From NCBI GenBank assembly GCA_964016885.1, contig OZ024747.1, positions 13,888,001-13,952,000 of the forward strand: a stretch of 64,000 nucleotides of DNA, in the 5' to 3' direction. Of the stretch, positions 524-57,300 are shown piece after piece. The translations under genes were made by a program, and so were the position numbers. Below the pieces are notes generated by a model that worked only from the letters and a program-made list of their open reading frames with translations, was not told the origin of the DNA and made no database searches. Position 1 is the stretch's first letter. Every line of letters starts with the position of its first letter. This DNA comes from Eledone cirrhosa. Lineage: Eukaryota.

Positions 524-22400
<21,877 letters not shown>

Positions 22401-28631: not shown

Positions 28632-28649
28632 ATGGCAGCCGCCAGAATG
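28632..28649 (+). CDS. UGGT: UGGT coding exon 1 (MAAARM)
   Basis: aatATGGCAGCC context, atg|gtgagt donor, phase 0 matches exon 2 and completes a signal peptide. Confidence 0.75.
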
Positions 28650-29995
28650 GTGAGTGTCTATTCGCATTATTTCCAGCTTAATATTTATTATTAATTTAAT
28701 TCATTTCCACATATAAAATGTTCTGGCTTCCTATCTCTTGTTTCACATTTATATTGTGGTGTTTTATGTAAATTCTAAGTTTCTATAGCTATCTGTTACT
28801 GATATCATGCACACAATGTAGTCGGTGTCTCCCGGTAAATCCGTAAACAAACTTGTTCTCTAGCAGACGTGGACAATCTGAGTTACTATATCACCGGCTA
28901 ATTTACTACTCTATATTACAGCTTCAATCTACTATTATTGGTTTCTTATCACTCCATTAGACTCGACCTCAATTTTTGTAAAAATTCAATTTAAATATTA
29001 TAAATATAACGAAAGTAATTTATTTACGGAAGTTTTATTATTTATATTTTTCATTATTCAACATTGTCGCTTTACATAAAAGCAGAATTTTATGGATTCG
29101 ATCTATGAAAAAAAAAAAAAAATTCTTAGAAATAAATTCTGTTAATACACTCAGTATTAGAGCCAGTGATGGCTAGAAGAGTTAGGGCGTCCCGCTTTGC
29201 TTTGTGAGTTCAAATCCTACAGACTGATCAACTTTGCCATTCATCTTCCGTGATCGATGAAATAAAGGCAAGTTCTATTTGCCTGTATCGACCAGTCATA
29301 TACAAGGTGTTGTCGTTCCATCTCCCCTCCTTGCTTCCTCTGCTGAGAGAGACAGAAGTGACTACCGACTCATTTACCGTATTCCTTGTCTTCTACAAGA
29401 CAACCACTGCCACTCTATCGCTGTGGAAGAATGTGGTCGCTAAGATCGGGTAGAGCATGGCACATGATAAATGCACTTATTGACATTCCGTTAAAAATAA
29501 TGAGATTGCCATTAGTATAACAATACCAATAAAAACGACAACAAAATGTGAACCCACCCCTCTTCTGCCACGCTTGTTTTCACTGCTAGAATACGATAAA
29601 GACGTTGCACGTTAGAGGCGTTAACTGTTTGCTTGATATTTAAGTAAACAAAATTCTGAAGTAAAAACACACACATGTACATGCCTGAATAATATATGTG
29701 TGTGTGTATATATGTGTGTCTGTATGTATGTATATATATGTATATATATTATATTATAGGAGGGTCATTACCAATAAAAACATGCAAATCTTGCAATATA
29801 TATATATATATATATAACGAAGGAAATGTGGTAAGGAACCAGGTGGACCATAACGCACCAAAGTACTCAATACTTAGGGTAGTAGACAAGTAAGACCCCG
29901 ACGGCTGAGCTCAGCCGTCGGGGTCTTACTTGTTGCTATATATATATATATATATATATATATACTTCGTCTTTGTATATATTTTGCAAGAATTG

Positions 29996-30035
<40 letters not shown>

Positions 30036-31018
30036 TTCGTTTTCGTATATATTTTGCAAGATTCGCGTGTTTTTATTGGCAACATGACCCTCTAAAAGTA
30101 TAACAATATATATATAACAAAGAAAGTGTGGCAAGACACCAGGTAGACCATAACGCACCAGAGTACTCGATACTTACGGTAGTAGAGTGGGTAATAGGAA
30201 AAGAGTCAGGACCCCGACGGCTGAGCTCCGGCCGTTTCGACAGCTAAATCCGTTCGGATCCCAGCCGTCGGGGTCCTGACTCTTTTCCTAACACACATAC
30301 ACACACACATATATCTGTGTGTATGTGTGTATAGGCACAGACATCGCCGTGTGGTTAAGGAGTTCGCTTCGCAACTATGCAGTTCTGAGTCCTGTCCCGC
30401 TACGCAGCTCCTTGGACTATTAGAGCTTCGCGTTTACCAATTCCTTGTGAATGGAATTTGGTAGACAGAGACTCCAAAAGCCCGTCGTTAAACGATGATT
30501 ATAATATATCTCTCTCTCCGTGTCTATGTCTGTGTTCTAGTTAAAGAGATTGATAAAATAAACAGCCTGGTCGATATGGTCGACTAAATCAAGGTGGTTC
30601 CCTAATTTCCCTTAGAATGGTGTGACTAAACCTCTGATGAGTACCTGAGTCTCATGTGGTTTAATCATAATCGATAGTTTGTCTTCAGTGATCGTTTATA
30701 TTGATTTATTTTTTTATTGATCGATTACATAGATCGATTTTTAGCCACACTTTCCAGGTATGAAATAGCGCTATAAGGTTTCACTTATGATTCCACCTGT
30801 GTACATATACTTCTATAGAATATGTATTTGGTATATATACAATATACCGTGTTTCTTTTACGATATATATATAAATATATATCTTCTCTATATATAAATA
30901 TATATCTCTCTATATATAAATATATATCTTCTAATTTGGTTATTATGGCTCTAGATAAAGTCTATTGAGCTTACTTACTGAGAAACACAAAATTCTAAAC
31001 ATATTTGATGTTTTGATT

Positions 31019-31068
<50 letters not shown>

Positions 31069-34000
31069 GAACGAGTAGGACCCCGACGGCTGAGCTCAAG
31101 CCGTTTCGACGGCTAATTCTGGACTGAATTAGCCGTCGAAACGGCTTGAGCTCAGCCGTCGGGGTCCTACTCGTTCCTATTACCCACTCTACTACCCTAA
31201 GTATTGAGTACTTTGGTGCGTTATGGTCCATCTGGTTCCTTACCACATTTCCTTCATTATATATATATATATGCCTCTCTAAGACAATGACAGTGGATCG
31301 AGACCTTTGGTGCCATGAAGTTGTACAGAAGACCCGACTACCATCGCATACAAACCTGCAGTCAGTATCCACCTCTTAACTCAATGTACACCCTATCCCA
31401 TCCCCCCTCTCCCGTTCCATCCACTGTGTCGATGACACAACAGTTCACACTGTAAGGTGGTCGTGTAGGAGACACGGTGAAAAGGCTCCCAGTCGACACT
31501 GTAAATGTGGTTAGTGTTAGGAAGGGCATCCAGCTGTAAAAAAACCTGCTAGAGACTCTTCCGTGAGAGCGAGACATGCTCTCCCGACCATTTCCGCATC
31601 AAATAGAACAAAACCGTCTAACCCATGCTAGCGTGGAAGATGGACGTTAAACGATGATGATGCCAAAAGTAAATGGAAACAACACAGTACAATGAAGAAA
31701 TATATTAATTTAATGCTTGATATAGTAGAAAAAGAGTCTTAACGTTTCAGACACTAGTCCTTCATCAGTAGATAGAAGGAGAAATAAAAGATGAAATAGA
31801 AAGACAGAGTGAGAAGAGGAAGGAATGGACAATATTTTTTTGAGAAAAACACGTGTATTTAGCTAATTTGAGAGAAAATGTCTTGACTGATTAATTTATT
31901 CTTTCTTTTTTTAAGAGAGAAGCATGTGGGATTTGAGGGAGATTTGGCTGTTATTTCTAGCAGGTTGAGTGGCCACAAAGGTGGAATGTTTCAGTATATT
32001 AATAAATATGTTCAATTGAATAGTATTTGCTCAGCTTCAGCGAAGCCTACTTTAAAACATGAATCTATATGTCATGTATCATTAATTTGTGAACTTCTTA
32101 GGCCTGGTAATTTTAAATCCATCACTGATCTCTATGGATGCATCGAAATGGTTACTTGACCTGCTACAGATTGTAGTCAAACCTCATTGTCTTAAACAGT
32201 AAAGGACTCATAGGATAATGTAATCCTAGATATCCACAGAAAGACAAAATGATTATTGTTGGAATGCTTTTGATCATAGACTTCTTCAATTAAAGTTAAC
32301 CCAGGACTAAAGGAAAACCGTCAACACTTTACGTCCTGTACCCACATGAAACCACATTAACAAGACATTCTTAAAAAGTACCTAACAACACTATGATTGC
32401 TTCACATTAAAAATTAAAGTCTTTAGTCAAATACTGCAAATTTTTACAACAATCTGTCCTCTTGACAAACCTGTTTTTTGATATTTTTTACTAAATCATT
32501 ACAGGATGTTAAGAGTTAAACAACAAAAAATATTAAACTCTTTATTTTTTCAAAAACTGTTTTTTTCCTCTTATTATTATTTTTTTGCTTGCATATATTT
32601 CTGTCTCGATTCATCCAATACCTTCTACGTGAAAGCAGATTGTAATATGTTTGTAATGATTGCTGAACATTGTACATGTCCTCAAGAGCCATGAAGCTGC
32701 TCATAGGAAGAAAGCAGCTGGTTACATTGTGCTGTCTTTGCAGGTCATTAAACAGGAGACAAATAAAATGTTCCCTTGTGAGGGCACCTTCTTGTTTATT
32801 GCTATTTATATCATCATCATCATTTGCTTGCATGGGTTAGATGGCTTGTCACATACTGAGGCTAGATGTCTGTTGTCCAAGCTTGCATGGCTGAGGCTGT
32901 CACCTTAATCCTTTAGCATTTACATTACTCTCTATATATACTATTGTATTTTCATGGTAAACACTTCACCTCACATAACATTTACATTACTCTCTATATA
33001 TACTATTGTATTTTCATGGTAAAGGCTTTACCTCACATAACATTTACATTACTCTCTATATATACTATTGTATTTTCATGGTAAACACTTCACCTCACAT
33101 AACATTTACATTACTCTCTATATATATACTATTGTATTTTCATGGTAAAGGCTTTACCTCACATAACATTTACATTACTCTCTATATATATATACTATTG
33201 TATTTTCATGGTAAACACTTCACCTCACATAATTATCTCACATAATATGGCATCTATGAGATTTTGGTATTTATTTTGAGAACAATACCTTAACATCAGT
33301 ATGAGCAGTCGATTGCGGCCGGTTCGAACAGAAAGAGAAGAGAGAATTCTGGCTGGATACATCCGGTTTAAATGCTAAAGGGTTAATGTGGCTTGACAAA
33401 ACAGGTGTCTTCCTTGTATGCTTTGTTTTTGGCTTAGTTTCTATGGTTAGGTTCTCTTCCTAATGCCAATCTCTTTACATTATATAATAGGAGCATATTA
33501 TCGTGACTCTTGTGTGTATTGCCAATAGGCAGTTGGGTAAAGTAAGATAAAACCCACAATGTGCTTTACTTAAAGGCACAATATTACATAATGGCTTCTA
33601 CTTTAGGCACAAGGCCAGCAAATACCCAGTACATTACTGGTACTTTATTTTATCGACCCCGTAAGGATGAAAGGCAAAGTCAACCTCGGCGGGATTTGAA
33701 CTCAGATTGTAAAGGGACGTAACTATGCTGGAAAGCATGGCGTCCGACCCTCTACCGATACTGCCAATCCACTACTTAATGGTTTCTGATTTAAGCACAT
33801 GGCCAACAATTATTGGGGCAAGGGGAAAGTCGATTAAATCGACCTCAGTACGTTACTGGTACTTTATTTTATCGACCCCCCCATAAGGATGAAAGGCAAA
33901 GCTAACCTTGATGGGATTTAAACTCAGAATGTAAAGGGTCGTAACTCTGCTGCAAAGCAGAGTGTCTGGTGCTTTACAGATATTGCCAATATTGACAATA

Positions 34001-35703
34001 TTACATAATGAACTTCTTCAGTAGTGGATTTGAACTCAAAACCCATCTATATGATTATAAATGTTGTTTGACTACAGACAAAGAAGACTAGTGCTGAAAG
34101 TAACCAGGACATCTGGTCTCAGCACATGGTATTAAATTTGTATCTTATATTATTGATTTAAGCGATCAATCCTTACAAATATTACATTGTTAGATGTTTG
34201 TTTATTAACATTTGATTTACTGTTGTTGTAGTTTAGCCACATGATTGAACAGATTTAGGGTCAAAGGCTCTCCAGCTGTGACCATTCCATTCTTTTGTAT
34301 ATCAGCAACTACATTGTCTGTGTTCTTTATTAAAGATGGTATTGTGAAAAGGATTCATGTAGAATATTATTTTCTTTTATCTTTCAGGTGTTATCTAGTG
34401 CTGCCACTTGTGTTGCAATTCTGTTGTTTTTAGGAAATGTTGACACAAAACAGAATTATGTGGATGTTAGTTTAAGTGCAAAATGGAACTCAACGCCTCT
34501 TGTTTTGGAAGCCAGGTAAGTCACCTTTTACTGTTTCTTCTAATAAAATACTAATATTATCATCATTTTACATTTGTCATGGCTTGGCCAGATCATCATG
34601 ATCCAAGACTAAAGGAGTTGGACAACCACGTCTTGCTTATATGTTCCATGTGAGCATGGTTTCTACAGCTAGGTGCCCTTACTAATACCAACCACTTTAC
34701 AAAGTGTACTGAGTGCATTTTATTGTGATACCAGCATTATCATTTAATAGTTTGTGGGATGCATTTTATTGTGACGCCTGTGATTCCATTTCACAGAGTG
34801 TATTGGGTGAATGTTATTGTAGCTTCTGAACTATGGCATAACCCTAAGTACATTTCATTGTGAAACCAGCACTACCACTTTATGAAGTGTACTGGGGGCA
34901 TTTTATTGTGGCACCATCTCTACCATTTTATTGCATGTCCTGGGTTCATTTCATTGTACCAGGACTATCCAGTACTCCTGGAAATAGAAAAAAGTTGACA
35001 AGGGTGCTTTCAAAGAGTCAAACTCTGGATACCATGTGAGTGCACTAATCCATCAAGCCTAGATGAAGGGTGAGTGCGTTAACTAATATACTAAAGAGCT
35101 GCTGGCCTATAATAATGAAAATACTTGTATACTTAAATTATATTTGAACTTGCTGCAGAAGTGAAAAATTTTTTTTTTTTACATCTACAAGCTTCAAGAT
35201 TTGTTGGTTGGGTAATAGTTAATGAATACTTACAAAACTAAAATAGATATTAAAACCTGGACTATTTCTTGTGGGTGTGTTTTTTTAAAATTTTGTTTTC
35301 TTTGTTTTAAACAGTGAGTTCCTTTATCGTGAAAATGAAGATTATTTCTGGAGATTTGTGGATGATATTACCCAAAGTACATCTGGGGAAATTAAATCAG
35401 GTTAGTATTCACTTTGTCTTGGTTTATTTTTCTTTTATTTCTGTTTTTTTTCTCAACTTCTCATCGTTATATAAGCACAGACATTTCTTTCGACGGTTGG
35501 ATGCCCTCCCTATCACTAACCATTTTACAACGTGAACTGGGTGTATTTATCATGTAGGTTACCAAACACTAGGGAGACTGATATATTTGAGTGTCAGTTT
35601 ACTACAGGCATCTTCGTACAATTTTAGAAGCAACTCGGTGACATATATCTATGTCTAGTATAAAAATACACCACTGGGCTGCAATTCAATGAAGATCAGA
35701 TGT

Positions 35704-46700: not shown

Positions 46701-49700
46701 CTGGGAACCGACTCTAATTAATTATGCCCTTTATGGTGGCGCTAATTCATAGCTACAGAAAAAAAAAAATTCATTTGTTTTGTTATTTATATAATAAAAT
46801 TATTCCTGGGAAAATCATGTGATTTGTTTTTAAATTTCTTATCTAATGTATTTCTTCAATTATTTTTACATTAGGAGGAGATTTTAAATAAATTGGTAAA
46901 GTTGGATTTAAAAAACAGTGGTGATGATTATGTCCTAGATTTCCGGCATTCTTCTATTGTGGTAAGTACATTTTCAATTTCTTCCATTGTTTAACACTTT
47001 TGATACCAAACCATCTCTAGTTCTCCGGCACAAAATTGTTTTAACCCATTAGCATTTACATTACTCTATATATACTATTGTATTTTTGTGGTAAAGGCTT
47101 TATCTCACATAATATCGAATCTATGAGATTTTGATTTTATTTATTTTAAGAACAATACCTTAACATCAGTATGAGTGGCCAATTACAGCCGGTTTGAACT
47201 GAAAGAGGTGAGAGAATTCAGGCCGGATATAACCGGTTTAAATGCAAAAGGTTGAAGTGGTTATGTGTGTTTAGAAAGCTGTACCCACTTTTCAGTTTCA
47301 TATTCCACAATGCTTGATATGTGGTAACGATGATTAATAGGGTATTTTTTATTCTATATCTATTCCAGTATGTAAATGATTTAGAAAAGGACACAAAGTA
47401 TCGACGTTGGTCTAGGAGTATGCAAGAAATGCTGAGACCCACTTTTCCTGGAATGTTAAGACACATTGCTAAGAATATTTTCCATATGGTATGTAGTATT
47501 TTTCATGTTTTTTGTACTGCTTTTAGTTTTTGAACTGCTGCTGAGCTAGGTCAATATCTTTAAGGGTTCTCTTTCAGTTATATCAACTCCAGTACCTATT
47601 CTATTAATCTTGATTTATGGAATGGCTAAATCTATCTTGGCATCAAGGAATGGAATAAATACCACAATATATTTTTGTTTGATGCACCAATTTATTAGTA
47701 ATCTGTCATCTATATACTCACATACGCCCATACATATTCATATGTGTATGTATATATGTATACATACATACTTACATGACAATCTCTTGTACAGCAAATT
47801 TCACTGAGAGTGCATTTTCCTGTCACCAAAGCTACACTATTTTTATGGATAAGACACATCTTTTTGGCTTATCAACATCACTGTATGACATCTAGTTTCC
47901 CTGCTGGCATGGGAACCACTTTACAGCATGAACTGGGAGCATTTTATTGTGATTTTTGCTTTCCCACCTCACAGGGTCGACTAGGTGCTTTTCATTGTGG
48001 TGCCAGCACCACCACTTTACAGTGTGGGCTTGATGTGTTAGTCCATTTAACTGTTCATCTCATTACTTCAAGCTGTAAGAATATAATGTAATTAACAAGA
48101 GGTCTATGAGTTTGTATTGTTAAGTGTGTCTTTGTGCTTGCCAACTGAAACTAATGGAATGTTGACTAGTCATATGCATTCTCTCTAACAGGTATTTGTA
48201 TATTTTATTCATTGCATATTTTATTCATTTTTGTCCTTGCAGGTGTTTGTACTTGATCCATCTAAGTCCTCAAGCCGAGATTTATTGAAGATAGCTGAAG
48301 CATTTTTTGTTCACAGTGCACCTGTCAGGTTGGTTTTTGTAAAAATGTTTTGGATTTTTTTCCTGTTAATCTTTTCCCTCATCACATGGGATCCAACATC
48401 TCATTATGTCATCATCATCATTTAATGTCTATTTTCCATGCTTGCATGGGTTAAACAGGCTATCTCATATTGAGGATGTATGTGTCCAGCTTACAATAGA
48501 TACACCACTGTATCTCTGCATATCATATGTAGTGACTAAAAGGGTTTGTATCAGGAAGGGCATATGGCTGTAAAATAGGTCCAGTCAAACCCATGCCAGC
48601 ATGGAAAAGTCAATGTAAACATGATTATGATAAGGCTAGATTTGTTTGTACATTCCATTTTTGGCTTGGTTTCTCTGGCTATATGCCCTTCCTAACAGCA
48701 TTCACTTTACAGCATGTACTGGGAGCATTTCATTGCAACTCCGGTACCTTCCAAGGTGAACTGAATGCTTTTTGTCTTGGCACTAGCACGATTGCCTTAC
48801 GTGACAGCCTGTATGGTTTTTGTCATGGCACCAGCACTATCACCTAACAGGATTAAGTGCTGTTTAACCAACAAACACTTAACTCTCAAAAACCAACTTG
48901 CTGTGAATATGTACCACATATTGACATAATCCCACTACTATAATTACTGATGTTAGTATGAAGATGCACAGAGAAAGACAGATGCATGCATATATGCATA
49001 TATCATTTTCCATAACCAAATTCACTCATTAGGCATTGGTCAGCCGGAGGGTATAGAAAACACTTGTCCAAGGTGCAGTGCCATAGGATTAACTTGAAAC
49101 TATATAGTTATGGATGAAGTGGACATCTAAATAACTGTATCTTCATTTATAGCCATGCCTGTGTATTTCATCTAACTTTAATATCCCCGTCAAAACATTT
49201 GTGATTTTGTGTAAATGTTAGAAATTAATAGGATTGTAGCAATGAACTATTTTGTGTAAATGTTAAAAATTAATAGGATTGTAGCAATGAACTATTTTGT
49301 GTAAATGTTAGTAATTAATAGGATTGTAGCAATGAACTATTTTGTGTAAATGTTAGTAATTAATAGGATTGTAGCAATGAACTATTTTGTGTAAATGTTA
49401 GTAATTAATAGGATTGTAGCAATGAACTATTTTGTGTAAATGTTAAAAATTAATAGGATTGTAGCAATGAACTATTTTGTGTAAATGTTAAAAATTAATA
49501 GGATTGTAGCAATGAACTATTTTGTGTAAATGTTAGAAATTAATAGGATTGTAGCAATGAACTATTTTGTGTAAATGTTAGTAATTAATAGGATTGTAGC
49601 AATGAACTATTTTGTGTAAATGTTAAAAATTATTAGGATTGTAGCAATGTTAGTAATTAATAGGATTGTAGCAATGAACTATTTTGTGTAAATGTTAGAA

Positions 49701-51268
49701 ATTAATAGGATTGTAGCAATGAACTATTTTGTGTAAATGTTAAAAATTAATAGGATTGTAGCAATGAACTATTTTGTGTAAATGTTAAAAATTAATAGGA
49801 TTGTAGCAATGAACTATTTTGTGTAAATGTTAGAAATTAATAGGATTGTAGCAATGAACTATTTTGTGTAAATGTTAAAAATTATTAGGATTGTAGCAAT
49901 GAACTATTTTGTGTAAATGTTAGTAATTAATAGGATTGTAGCAATGAACTATTTTGTGTAAATGTTAGAAATTAATAGGATTGTAGCAATGAACTATTTT
50001 GTGTAAATGTTAGAAATTAATAGGATTGTAGCAATGAACTATTTTGTGTAAATGTTAGAAATTAATAGGATTGTAGCAATGAACTATTTTGTGTAAATGT
50101 TAGAAATTAATAGGATTGTAGCAATGAACTATTTTTTTGTTTTGTCTTTGATTTCACTGTCAGAAACCTGTTCTTATATTAATATTGTTATTATATTGTA
50201 GGATTGGAATTGTTTTTACTGTGAATGCAAGTAAAGAGGCAGATGGTTTCTCAGATGCTGGTGTAGCTATTGCAAGAGCCTTCCAGTACATCAAAATTGA
50301 TCAGGATGCTGCTTCAGCTCTATCCTTCATCACAGATGTAAGTGGCTTTCTTTGACATTTACTTGAAGTATCATATGGAGGCAGGGAGCTACCATTGAAG
50401 CAGATGTTGAGCTGGGTCTTGGGCATAATGTGATGATGGAAGGTAAACGCACACCTGGTACACACTGTAAAGTGGTTGATGATAGGAAGAGCATCCAACC
50501 GTAGAAATGTTGCCAATCAAAGGGTTGGGAGGACCCTCAGTTGTATCAAAGGCTTGAAAACCTCTCCTAAACACACAATGGAACATAAGACCGTACATAA
50601 GTGTGACACAGATCCCTGGCTTTCTTGGGAGATCAGGGGCTCTGCTTCAGTATGGACTTGGTCTATATAGATCCGTCCAACCCTTGCTAGCAGAGAAAGT
50701 GGATGTTAAAACGACAATGATGATGATGGTATGGCAGCTACATTGAAGTGTAAAACAGTTGGAGAGGATGTTGGGTTGGATCTTAGGAATGGTATGGAAG
50801 AATAAATATAGCAGCTACATTTAAGTATAAAGTGTGTACAGGAGAGATCTACAGATGGAGAGGATCTTGAGAATGATGTGAAGGTACTATTAAATAATGT
50901 GGCAGATACATTTAAGTGTAAAGTGTGTATGAGACAAGAGAGCTACTGAGGGAGGGGATGTTGAGCTGGATCTTGAGAATGGTATGAAGATGGAAGGTGT
51001 GTAAATGTTTGGTACTTTAGAAACATGTTGAAGGGAGAGGGTGGATCAGATTTTGATAAATCTATATGGAAGTGTGTAAGAATTTAAAATTAACCAATAT
51101 CTTTTTCTCTTCACAGCTTTATGACAAACAAAAAGATGATCTCACCCCTAAGTTTATTGCCACAGAATTTGGAAGTCGCTTCAACGATGAGGATTTGAAT
51201 AAAGTTTTTGGAGATGATGATGATTATGATGATCTAAGAAAAGTAAGTATATACATCTCTCTGTATAT

Positions 51269-54300: not shown

Positions 54301-57300
54301 GGGATTTCGAAGTTAGCGTGAGTATTGTTTGGTGTTAAGATTTTGATGACTGATGATGTTAATGGCTCTAAATTTTTACAACCACTGATCTGTCATTTCA
54401 GAGATATGACCTTATTGTATTTGCTTCTGTTTCAGGGTATGGATATTGATCAGTATCTTGCTACATTGGAGAGACAAGATAACAGCTTTCTGAAAGTTCA
54501 TCATATCTTTGTTGAAAGAATTCTCTCACTTCCACCTGGAGCTCATGCAATTATTGGAAATGGAAAGGTATGGTACCTCATATTATTGACTCTCTGTCTC
54601 CTACTACATCATTTATTTACAGATTAGCAGAACTTTTAGAGCAGCAGATAAATTGCTTTGCATTATTAGTTCTAGGCAGGGGATTGGCAGTATCGGTAGA
54701 GAGTCAGATGACATGCTTTGTGGTTTAGAGTTACGACCTTTTACATTCTGAGTTCAAATCCTGCCGAGGTTAGCTTTGCCTTTCACCTTTACGGGGTTGA
54801 TAAAATAAAGCACCAGTAATGCACTGGGGTCGATTTAATCGACAATCCCCTCCCCCTTTCAAATTGCTGGCCTTGTGCCTATAGTAGAAATTGTTATTAA
54901 TTCTGGTTGTCAACTTTGCTTTTCATCCTTCCAAGTTTGAGAAAATAGAGTACCAATCAAGTACTTGGGTCAATTGAAATAGCTTTCCTCTCATGCAATT
55001 GCTGGTCTTGTGCCTAAATTAGTAATCATATTTTAAAACTTTTTTTGATAAACCTTTTTGTTTAATTTTCTGTTAACAGGTGATTGGTCCACTAAAAGAA
55101 GATGAGTTGTTTATACAAGAGGATTTCTCATTATTTGAGAAACACCTGATGCAAACAAGTGCAAGGAAGATCCAAGCTCATGTTGAATCTATTCAAATCA
55201 GTAGTGACCTGTAAGTATTTGTTGCTTTATCTTCTGTAACATATAAATTGATTTTAGATGTCTTTACTAATAGCTGGTGCATACAGAACCCAGAAGGGTG
55301 GCTCATACAGAACTACAGAATCTAGATGTATGACACTACAGAACATAGAATAATGGGTTACACATCACTACAGAACTTAGACTGGTGGGTTACACAACAT
55401 GATAGAACCTAGAAAAATGTGTTACAGACCGCTAGAAAACCTAGAATAGTGGTTTACACAGTATCGCATAGCCTAGATTAGTGGGTTACACACCACTACA
55501 GAACACAGAATAGTAGGTTACACACCACTACAGAACACAGAATAGTAGGTTACACACCACTACAGAACACAGAATAGTAGGTTACACACCACTACAGAAC
55601 ACAGAATAGTAGGTTACACACCACTACAGAACACAGAATAGTAGGTTACACACCACTACAGAACCTAGAAAAGTGGGCTACACAACATGATAGAACCTAG
55701 AATAGTGGGTTACACAGTACTACAAAACCTAAAAAGTGGGTTACACATGACGGGATCTAGAAGTGTGGGTCAAACAGTACCATAAAAAATAAAATAACAA
55801 TACAAGTTGATAACATTAAACTCAATGCCCTTGTTAAGAAGGGCATTGAGTTTAATGTTAATTTCTATATAAATAAATACACACACATATTGACATATAT
55901 ATGTGACATATATAGTTTATATATAGTTTATATAACATTTTTATATATGATTTATTATATGATTATCTTGCATATTTATTATGTTGCAGAGCTAGTGACC
56001 TTGTGATGAAGATTGCTTCTTTATTGTCATCAAAAACAATGAGTGAAAGTCGTAAAGACATCAACTATCATGCAGATGGTCACAGGTAAGGAAAAGAAAG
56101 TTTGGTTAGGAAAGATGAAAGTGTATTTATGAGGATTTTACTTAAAATTATCTTCAGTCTTTTACAGTTGTTCATCATTATCACCTTTACTAGACGGTGG
56201 ATTGGCAGTATCGGTAGAGGGTCGGACGCCATGCTTTGACGCAAAGAGTTACGGCCCTTGCCATTCTGAGTCAAATCCCGCCGAGGTTAACTTTGCCTTT
56301 CATACTTACGGGGTCGATAAAATAAAGTACCAGTAATACAATGGGTAATTTCTGGCCTTGTGCCAAAAGTAGAAACAATTATCACATTTACTGCCATATT
56401 TCTGAAATAGATCTAGTAGAATGTCTTTTGTAATCATCATTATCATCATCTTTTTATGTTCATTTTTCCATGTTTGCATGGGTTGGAAGGGTTAGGGTTA
56501 AGTAAGGGTCTTTTCCATGGGTTTTCTGCCCATGTCTTCTTTGGCCTTTCTTTACTGGAGCTTCCTTCTACTGAGAACTCCTGGCACTTCTTCACCTAAA
56601 GCAACCATCATCCATATACATTACAGGTCCATACCAGTGCAGCCTTCTCTCTTGCACACTACATTATGTATCTATTTGTATCAACACCATCATTGTCCTG
56701 AGGATGATAATAATGATGATGGTGTTTATTTTTCCATGCTTGCATAGATTAGACAGGTCTTCTCCAGAACAGTGGTTTGCCTCTGTGAGCTGACGCCTGC
56801 TGAGTTCAGCTCAAACCACTTCTTACTATGTATTCCAAAGTCTTCCTCATGAGCAGCTTCTTTCCACTTGGATCACTTGACTTTTCTTTCTCCAATCATC
56901 ATCATCATTTTACGTCCACTTTTCCCTGCTTGCAAGGGTGGGACGGGAACTGATTTTGGCTTGATTTCTACAGCTGGATGCCCTTCCTAACACCAACCTC
57001 ATTTACAGTGAGTGCTGGGTGCTTTTTTGCCGTGGCACCTTCACGACCACTTTGCAGTGGAATGATAGGGACCCCAGTCCCTATCATCTCATTTCTACAG
57101 CTGAGTAAACTGGAGCAATGTGAAATAAAGTGTCTTGCTCAAGGAAACAACACATCACCCGGTCTGAGAATTGAACTCACAACCTTTCGATTGCAAGACC
57201 AATGCTCTAACCACTAAGCCATGTGCCTCCAATGTTATCCTCAATACACTTCATGAAGATCAGTGGAATAAATATCTTACTTAAAAATAAGATATAGGTT

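Follow-up and report, generated by a model that had tools for sequence, protein, structure and literature searches.

The window, that is, the whole 64-kb stretch of DNA analysed here, holds the start of a UGGT gene on the forward strand, and the first coding intron of this gene carries a hammerhead ribozyme motif in sense orientation (Table 1). A sequence-only reading of the same DNA had placed the motif in this intron, and the gene model bears it out: the two flanking coding exons are in phase, and exons further downstream match Thioredoxin_12, 13, 14 and 15 in order on the + strand, with what we take to be the UGGT catalytic motifs lying downstream of the window. The first exon piece alone has no match in PDB or Pfam. 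Elsewhere in the window, exons of a WD40-repeat gene precede UGGT (19888-22400, + strand), and the UGGT introns contain 45-nt and 32-nt minisatellite arrays (49069-50295 and 55302-55781). SINE-like fragments, in which tRNA-like boxes can be made out by eye, occupy 30340-30600, directly upstream of the repeat copy that holds the ribozyme; ARAGORN finds no tRNA gene in 29000-32000, and read-through transcription from these fragments into the ribozyme is conceivable. Downstream, 31070-31272 belongs to a hairpin repeat that is extremely abundant and has (TA)n on its flanks (also present at 29802-29935 and 30106-30285), whose summed contig depth runs to millions against about 10 in unique flank. 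Its 3' arm resembles the 3' half of a hammerhead (GAAA, a 5-bp stem III and GUC), its 5' arm is an inverted copy, and CUGANGA is absent upstream of it in 12 of 12 stretches checked.

Table 1. Features in and around the first coding intron of UGGT (window coordinates)
Feature	Position	Strand	Basis
Predicted first coding exon of UGGT, MAAARM/GT	28632..28649	+	inferred from splice signals and phase
Family A copy, 5'-truncated (non-coding, Penelope-type (PLE), unit ~590-600 nt)	30605..31024	+	
Stem I, 5' strand AAACCT	30628..30633	+	base-pair probabilities
Core CUGANGA (CTGATGA in the window copy)	30634..30640	+	sequence
Stem II proximal helix, 5' strand GTACCTG, first pair G.U	30641..30647	+	pair probabilities 0.95-0.99
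107-nt stem II insert: distal helix 30655-61/30743-49, two predicted hairpins, ~29-nt imperfect internal duplication	30648..30754	+	
Stem II proximal helix, 3' strand CAGGTAT	30755..30761	+	pair probabilities
Core GAAA	30762..30765	+	sequence
Palindrome ATAGCGCTAT, 10 nt, stem III (monomer, three A-U pairs; dimer, 10-bp duplex)	30765..30774	+	
AUA triplet, A30775 = H17; predicted cut between 30775 and 30776	30773..30776	+	sequence
Stem I, 3' strand AGGTTT	30776..30781	+	base-pair probabilities
'Tail' between the two fixed 3' ends of family A (unit ~+312 and ~+400)	30944..31024	+	
(TA)n run at 3' junction, usual family A target	31024..31065	.	
Predicted second coding exon of UGGT, AG acceptor, in phase	34388..34515	+	splice signals and phase

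All hammerhead elements named in that reading are found where it put them, by sequence and by pair probability. CUGANGA, GAAA and UH follow one another in order, and the motif has the layout of a type I hammerhead with predicted self-cleavage. With 30615-30793 folded, the seven stem II pairs reach the probabilities given in Table 1, and five of the six stem I pairs stand at 0.83-0.87, the outermost at 0.23. Two details had to be revised. The GTG/CAC extension proposed for stem I is near-private to the window copy and is no feature of its family (30623 is T in 2 of 54 copies and A in 51), and the insert, described as a single imperfect hairpin, folds as a multibranch in which the 7-bp proximal helix leads into a 7-bp distal helix and then two hairpins. 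In natural type I hammerheads a short hairpin usually serves as stem II; the stem II seen here, insert included, has a predicted energy of -27.2 kcal/mol (z = -3.0 against 100 shuffles). Long inserts within a hammerhead carried by a host transcript are also reported of the discontinuous CLEC2 hammerheads of mammals, said to be type III ribozymes in the 3' UTR of single-copy genes with the insert in stem I; the window motif is of type I, belongs to a repeat and has its insert in stem II. Hammerhead stem II usually opens with a G-C pair, and here the first pair (10.1-11.1) is G.U instead of G10.1-C11.1, as it is in 49 of 54 family copies, the other five having A-U. Natural exceptions at this pair, for example U-U, are described in PMC3088659, and in the table of PMC8557442 the Hydra-1_oBim hammerhead has a 7-bp stem II opening with G.U.

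Taken as a whole, 30610-30800 is not more stably folded than its shuffles (z = -0.82), and its minimum-energy fold disrupts the hammerhead: the active monomer fold lies at -32.3 kcal/mol and the best fold at -37.6. Stems I and II are predicted to form in the monomer, with stem III weak there and strong only in a dimer; the palindrome makes no hairpin by itself, and its self-duplex is worth -13.1 kcal/mol. Because of this duplex and the 5.3 kcal/mol penalty of the active monomer fold, the active form of the ribozyme is likely to need a dimer or the help of a protein, in keeping with the earlier suggestion that the palindromic stem III favours dimers, and the modelling inclines us, with modest confidence, to a family ribozyme that would be active as a dimer. 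Metazoan PLE hammerheads are described as acting as dimers in PMC4209133. On the other side, only one of nine retrozyme dimers tested cleaved in 10.64898/2026.07.22.740005.

Rather than being a unique host element, the motif in the UGGT intron belongs to one copy of a repeat of about 0.6 kb, family A, that is dispersed in the genome. A search for genomic copies, as the earlier reading had advised, returned 615 candidates for the query 30560-30840 in the 3.0-Gb assembly (G000); the best 40 were scored and gave 46 matches, and 39 other places among these best 40 of 615 are 86-94% identical to the window copy. Two more queries from the family gave 831 and 594 candidates, all to be taken as rough lower bounds and not as copy numbers; by these candidates the family runs to hundreds of copies. 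With window position 30605 set to 0, the window copy spans unit positions 0 to about +400. Other copies are preceded by the sequence that also forms their own downstream end; the unit is therefore circularly permuted, with a period of 585, 590, 590 and 599 nt at four loci and of 554, 325 and 732 nt where indels are present. Among 118 segments of at least 90 nt, 29 end at +310-319 and 51 at +390-409, which gives two fixed 3' ends with an optional tail of about 90 nt between them. In the +400-409 bin, 18 of 42 segments run on into the next unit (counted from the printout); those without read-through mostly end in (TA)n, as do most of the +312 ends. The 5' ends fall at scattered positions, and many loci have inverted 5' pieces.

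Truncation at the 5' end, head-to-tail partial tandems and inverted 5' pieces are the traits of PLE insertions as described in PMC8557442, and two internal starts of reverse transcription with a genomic tail are given as a PLE signature in PMC11167929. A DNA transposon or a SINE was considered and set aside for family A, which has scattered 5' ends and no recurring terminal inverted repeats. The unit is non-coding: no ATG-started frame in four unit-length copies exceeds 89 codons, and six-frame reading of the upstream part yields no convincing protein. Non-LTR retrozymes are marked by a non-coding unit with a type I hammerhead, as in family A, by at least two consecutive units that each carry a complete one, and by abundant circular RNA. 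About 78 separate loci of family A, a small part of all its loci, contain no direct tandem of two complete hammerheads; such tandems are found in families B and C, introduced below. The copies, the permuted unit and the two fixed 3' ends together bear out the conjecture of the sequence-only reading that the motif marks an undescribed retrozyme or Penelope-type family.

For the state of the ribozyme we compared 54 distinct family A copies that span the motif, a sample drawn with the window copy as query. The strict core is kept in 25 of them (29 with U4C allowed), and core and all three stems are intact in 9, including the window copy, which differs from the column majority by 4.3%. The length of stem II varies from 85 to 131 nt, most of the shorter forms missing part of the ~29-nt imperfect internal duplication, and we propose that the insert grew partly by internal duplication. 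Common variants in the core and stems I-III are confined to N7 (T or A; A in 23/54) and U4 (C in 14/54) in the core, plus one A-U to G.U change at 30629, where A becomes G in 12 of 54 copies and the pair is retained. A C at U4 is tolerated in hammerhead cores and may lower the activity of the copies that carry it. Three common variants in the distal helix preserve pairing; one in an inner hairpin of the insert breaks its pair in 18 of 49 copies.

With columns whose second letter reaches 15% excluded, the core and stem positions diverge from the majority by 6.0% and the flanks by 4.6%, base-by-base rates being alike. Since ribozyme positions decay no slower than flanks, the genomic copies decay neutrally and the ribozyme in them is not protected; some intact copies are therefore expected by chance. 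Two-sided covariation in family A is no higher than in shuffles (213 of 500 as high), and RNAalifold finds no consensus pairs among the 54 copies, a null that probably follows from neutral decay. None of 61 5' ends falls within 6 nt of the cut site, a count that excludes only a strong pile-up, and the copies run through that site, which suggests that their template was uncut or re-ligated RNA. Three contig sets from one sample show the same common variants and are not informative on expression.

These figures also bear on UGGT itself. The sequence-only reading had suggested that the ribozyme might cut UGGT pre-mRNA co-transcriptionally, and a host that had kept or co-opted the window copy to tune expression in this way would be expected to hold it in sense orientation and intact. 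Both are observed, in a sample that was drawn with this copy as query. We nevertheless regard such co-option as very improbable. Ribozyme positions decay as fast as others, the 5' ends leave no trace of the cut, and the active monomer fold is not the favoured one; the window and the next 60 kb downstream, 124 kb in all, hold no further copy of family A, and pre-mRNA cleavage is for this reason unlikely to matter. Single minimal PLE hammerheads did not cleave in vitro according to PMC4209133, and single PLE hammerheads needed protein according to PMC11167929. The UGGT copy is probably inert baggage, and a meaningful effect of the ribozyme on UGGT is highly unlikely.

The flanks of the fetched loci contain unrelated repeats with the same element order and a palindromic stem III. 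Five further long-arm families were searched in the assembly: family B (stem II of 50 nt, 3019 candidates, tandem unit 459-467 nt), family C (51 nt, 2398 candidates, tandem unit 530-538 nt), family G (78-79 nt, 3487 candidates), family E (90 nt, 1142 candidates) and family F (95 nt, 2895 candidates, unit ~720 nt). For their stem II regions the folding z lies between -3.1 and -5.8; a further candidate with a 58-nt stem II has no stable fold (z = 0.5). An over-long stem II thus recurs in at least five unrelated abundant families besides A, and the long arms of this genome range from 49 to 131 nt. More hammerhead-like repeats were seen in passing, with a stem II of 49 nt (L157:2556-2663), 83 nt (L221, - strand), 75 nt (L285, with a U3-A8 core), 31 nt (L289), 34 nt (L290), 38 nt (L190) and 20 nt (L028:210-288). 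Covariation of the stems, proposed earlier as a check on genomic copies, fails to appear in family A and is present in the unrelated family C: across 36 rows of C and its relatives five pairs change on both sides, three of them in proximal stem II, and none of 500 shuffles reaches this score, for which related rows are not independent. We propose that the long stem II represents an extension, structured and tolerated, which has arisen repeatedly in the PLE lineages of this genome.

Rfam RF00163 (Hammerhead_1), whose type I topology and core order family A shares, picks up the short-stem family D and none of the six long-stem families (1 of 7 loci); an Rfam search of the window region lists 43 matches down to E = 10, none a hammerhead, and the motif does not reach the 34-bit threshold of RF00163. 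The expectation that the insert would hide the ribozyme from standard searches was thus correct. Silence from Rfam, like the z of -0.82 for the whole region, is also what would be seen if short motifs 121 nt apart had come together by chance in AT-rich DNA. This reading is contradicted by three results and retains a negligible probability: a descriptor fitted to the motif, and chosen after the motif had been seen, finds 1 site in the 64-kb window and none in 150 order-3 Markov controls of the same length; the identical element order returns in at least six unrelated families; and stem II covaries in family C.

Family E contains a full-length young PLE (L254:2747-5029, - strand; G000:C1:121324500-121331500) with an intact 760-aa ORF between two 90-nt-stem-II hammerheads that lie 3015 nt apart in pLTRs, together with an inverted 5' piece. 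The top copies of the family, the best 40 of 1142 candidates, are 98-99% identical. The ORF has RWK and DKT motifs, a CxCx5C linker, VY..YVG and CxH (CxxC is absent in this copy), and insertion is at (TA)n. Pfam returns no RT or GIY-YIG match for it; it is 21% identical to a Neptune ORF (E = 2e-4) and has one database relative, at 34% identity. Judged by its motifs, RWK, DKT and CxCx5C among them, it matches the definition of the Hydra clade in PMC8557442. Family G lies, at two loci, downstream of the end of a Hydra-type ORF related to that of family E. The assembly yields 56,195 candidates for a Hydra-type endonuclease query, and the Hydra clade may form a major part of this genome; its dominant family here (top loci, L255-L292) has a long 3' UTR, a short Rfam-type hammerhead with a 14-nt stem II, and two 3' ends ~100 nt apart.

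A young family with intact cores, and covariation in another, are relevant to a reading in which the insert has crippled the family A hammerhead and the element spreads without cleavage, carrying a relic along. The lack of covariation and of a cleavage footprint in family A and the G.U at 10.1-11.1 are as this reading would have them, and hammerhead mutations did not impair PLE insertion in vitro in PMC11167929. On the other side stand the intact cores with long stem II in family E, the covarying long stem II of family C, and the mildness of the common variants in the core, stems I-III and distal helix, qualified by the broken pair of the inner hairpin. We consider a relic rather unlikely.

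The putative autonomous partner of family A would most likely be a member of the Hydra clade. A search of 30 GIY-YIG loci, 20 long-ORF loci and the loci of Hydra and its sister families turned up no autonomous element with family A sequence, and the assignment is accordingly drawn from likeness of layout and target only. As in the Hydra-clade PLEs of PMC8557442, insertion is into (TA)n and a sense hammerhead sits ~50-250 nt before the 3' end; the pLTR hammerheads tabulated there likewise have a palindromic stem III of 7-10 nt and, in many rows, a stem II base that is not G-C. Those PLEs have an ORF, whereas family A has none. It weighs against the assignment that Neptune-type families in this genome, which have short arms, share the (TA)n ends. 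Among these, L129 (- strand), L130, L137, L139 and L122 carry minimal hammerheads with a U3-A8 core variant and end in (TA)n ~170 nt past the ribozyme, just before the ORF start. At L149:2243-4028 a PLE ORF piece (RVT_1, weak GIY-YIG, no Neptune zinc linker) is inserted next to a family A copy. The PLE ORF beside L026 was tried as the partner and rejected as a separate insertion with its own 3' end.

Family A could instead be the pLTR of an autonomous PLE yet to be located, its 0.6-kb monomer being a deletion derivative. Families E and G, with their long stem II, do sit downstream of Hydra-type ORFs, and with the best 40 candidates scored per search, ORF-linked copies of family A could have been missed. 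Yet the family A copies that reach far upstream all re-enter the 3' part of their own unit and not an ORF, and tblastn matches to PLE proteins near family A loci are separate insertions where examined. An RT and GIY-YIG ORF between pLTRs is present in family E and none is linked to family A in the loci searched; all that family A shares with Hydra-type elements there is a 30-nt match (84-87%) to DNA upstream of family G. We hold a pLTR origin to be unlikely.

Very probably, then, family A is non-autonomous and depends on a PLE, and its hammerhead likely served the RNA cycle of the element rather than UGGT. The insertion pattern is observed, and the steps that could produce it are as follows. 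A tandem source copy would be transcribed, and two hammerheads would pair through the 10-nt palindrome, or a PLE protein would aid folding. The paired hammerheads would cut at AUA, releasing unit-length RNA that may circularise. The PLE protein would then begin reverse transcription at one or the other of two internal sites, which lie 140 and 230 nt past the cut; this reverse transcriptase/GIY-YIG protein would copy an uncut or re-ligated template, giving copies that span the cleavage site, and would insert them into (TA)n. Poseidon PAc of the green anole, as described in PMC11167929, resembles family A in its two internal start sites and optional tail, in copies from uncut RNA and in the lack of ends at the cleavage site; its tail is 30-40 bp and inside the ORF, against ~90 nt and non-coding in family A.

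With the non-LTR retrozymes of PMC7229834 and 10.64898/2026.07.22.740005, family A shares a non-coding unit, one type I hammerhead, a palindromic stem III, head-to-tail copies and coexisting PLEs. Its unit of ~600 nt exceeds the 170-400 nt of the first description (PMC7229834) and falls within the range of 51-972 bp given in 10.64898/2026.07.22.740005. It differs from these retrozymes in a stem II of ~121 nt against ~14, and it is known from genomic copies, as dispersed partial tandems with PLE-type inversions and tails. By its sequence, family A would function like a non-LTR retrozyme; it is a candidate member, since two complete units in tandem do not occur in the sample.

The long-armed stem II is, on the sequences, a new architecture, a structural variant of PLE and retrozyme hammerheads. 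In the table of PMC8557442, Hydra rows have a loop 2 of at most ~10 nt, against 35-117 nt in the long-arm families of this genome, and the longest loop 2, 35 nt, belongs to a plant element marked as deviating. In some Naiads, according to the same source, 35-50 nt separate the half-cores, perhaps another case of what is seen here. Surveys of PLEs and retrozymes, as far as their published methods go, use short-loop descriptors, one with a 7-17-nt spacer for core searches, and candidates with very long unstructured insertions were discarded in PMC10085705. Our literature search yielded no report of PLE or retrozyme hammerheads with a 50-130-nt stem II, within a literature in which Lunse et al. 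2017, the Terminon work and the supplements of PMC4209133 could hold like cases.

For UGGT the finding is probably an ordinary one, a single intronic repeat copy among hundreds. For the elements themselves, we advance tentatively, at slightly less than even confidence, an undescribed class of active type I hammerheads in which stem II is extended to a structured domain of 49-131 nt, present in thousands of copies in autonomous Hydra-clade PLEs and in their non-coding, retrozyme-like dependants; the extra domain could be a docking site at which a PLE protein switches cleavage on. Because the class is invisible to Rfam and to short-loop descriptors, counts of animal hammerheads and some claims of PLEs without a hammerhead may err on the low side. 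At least six abundant families with arms of 50-131 nt are now at hand, and the intact autonomous element is a ready test system. If the long-arm families cleave, surveys have missed a sizeable share of animal ribozymes, and the presence of short- and long-arm families in one genome would let the role of the hammerhead in Penelope elements be tested directly.
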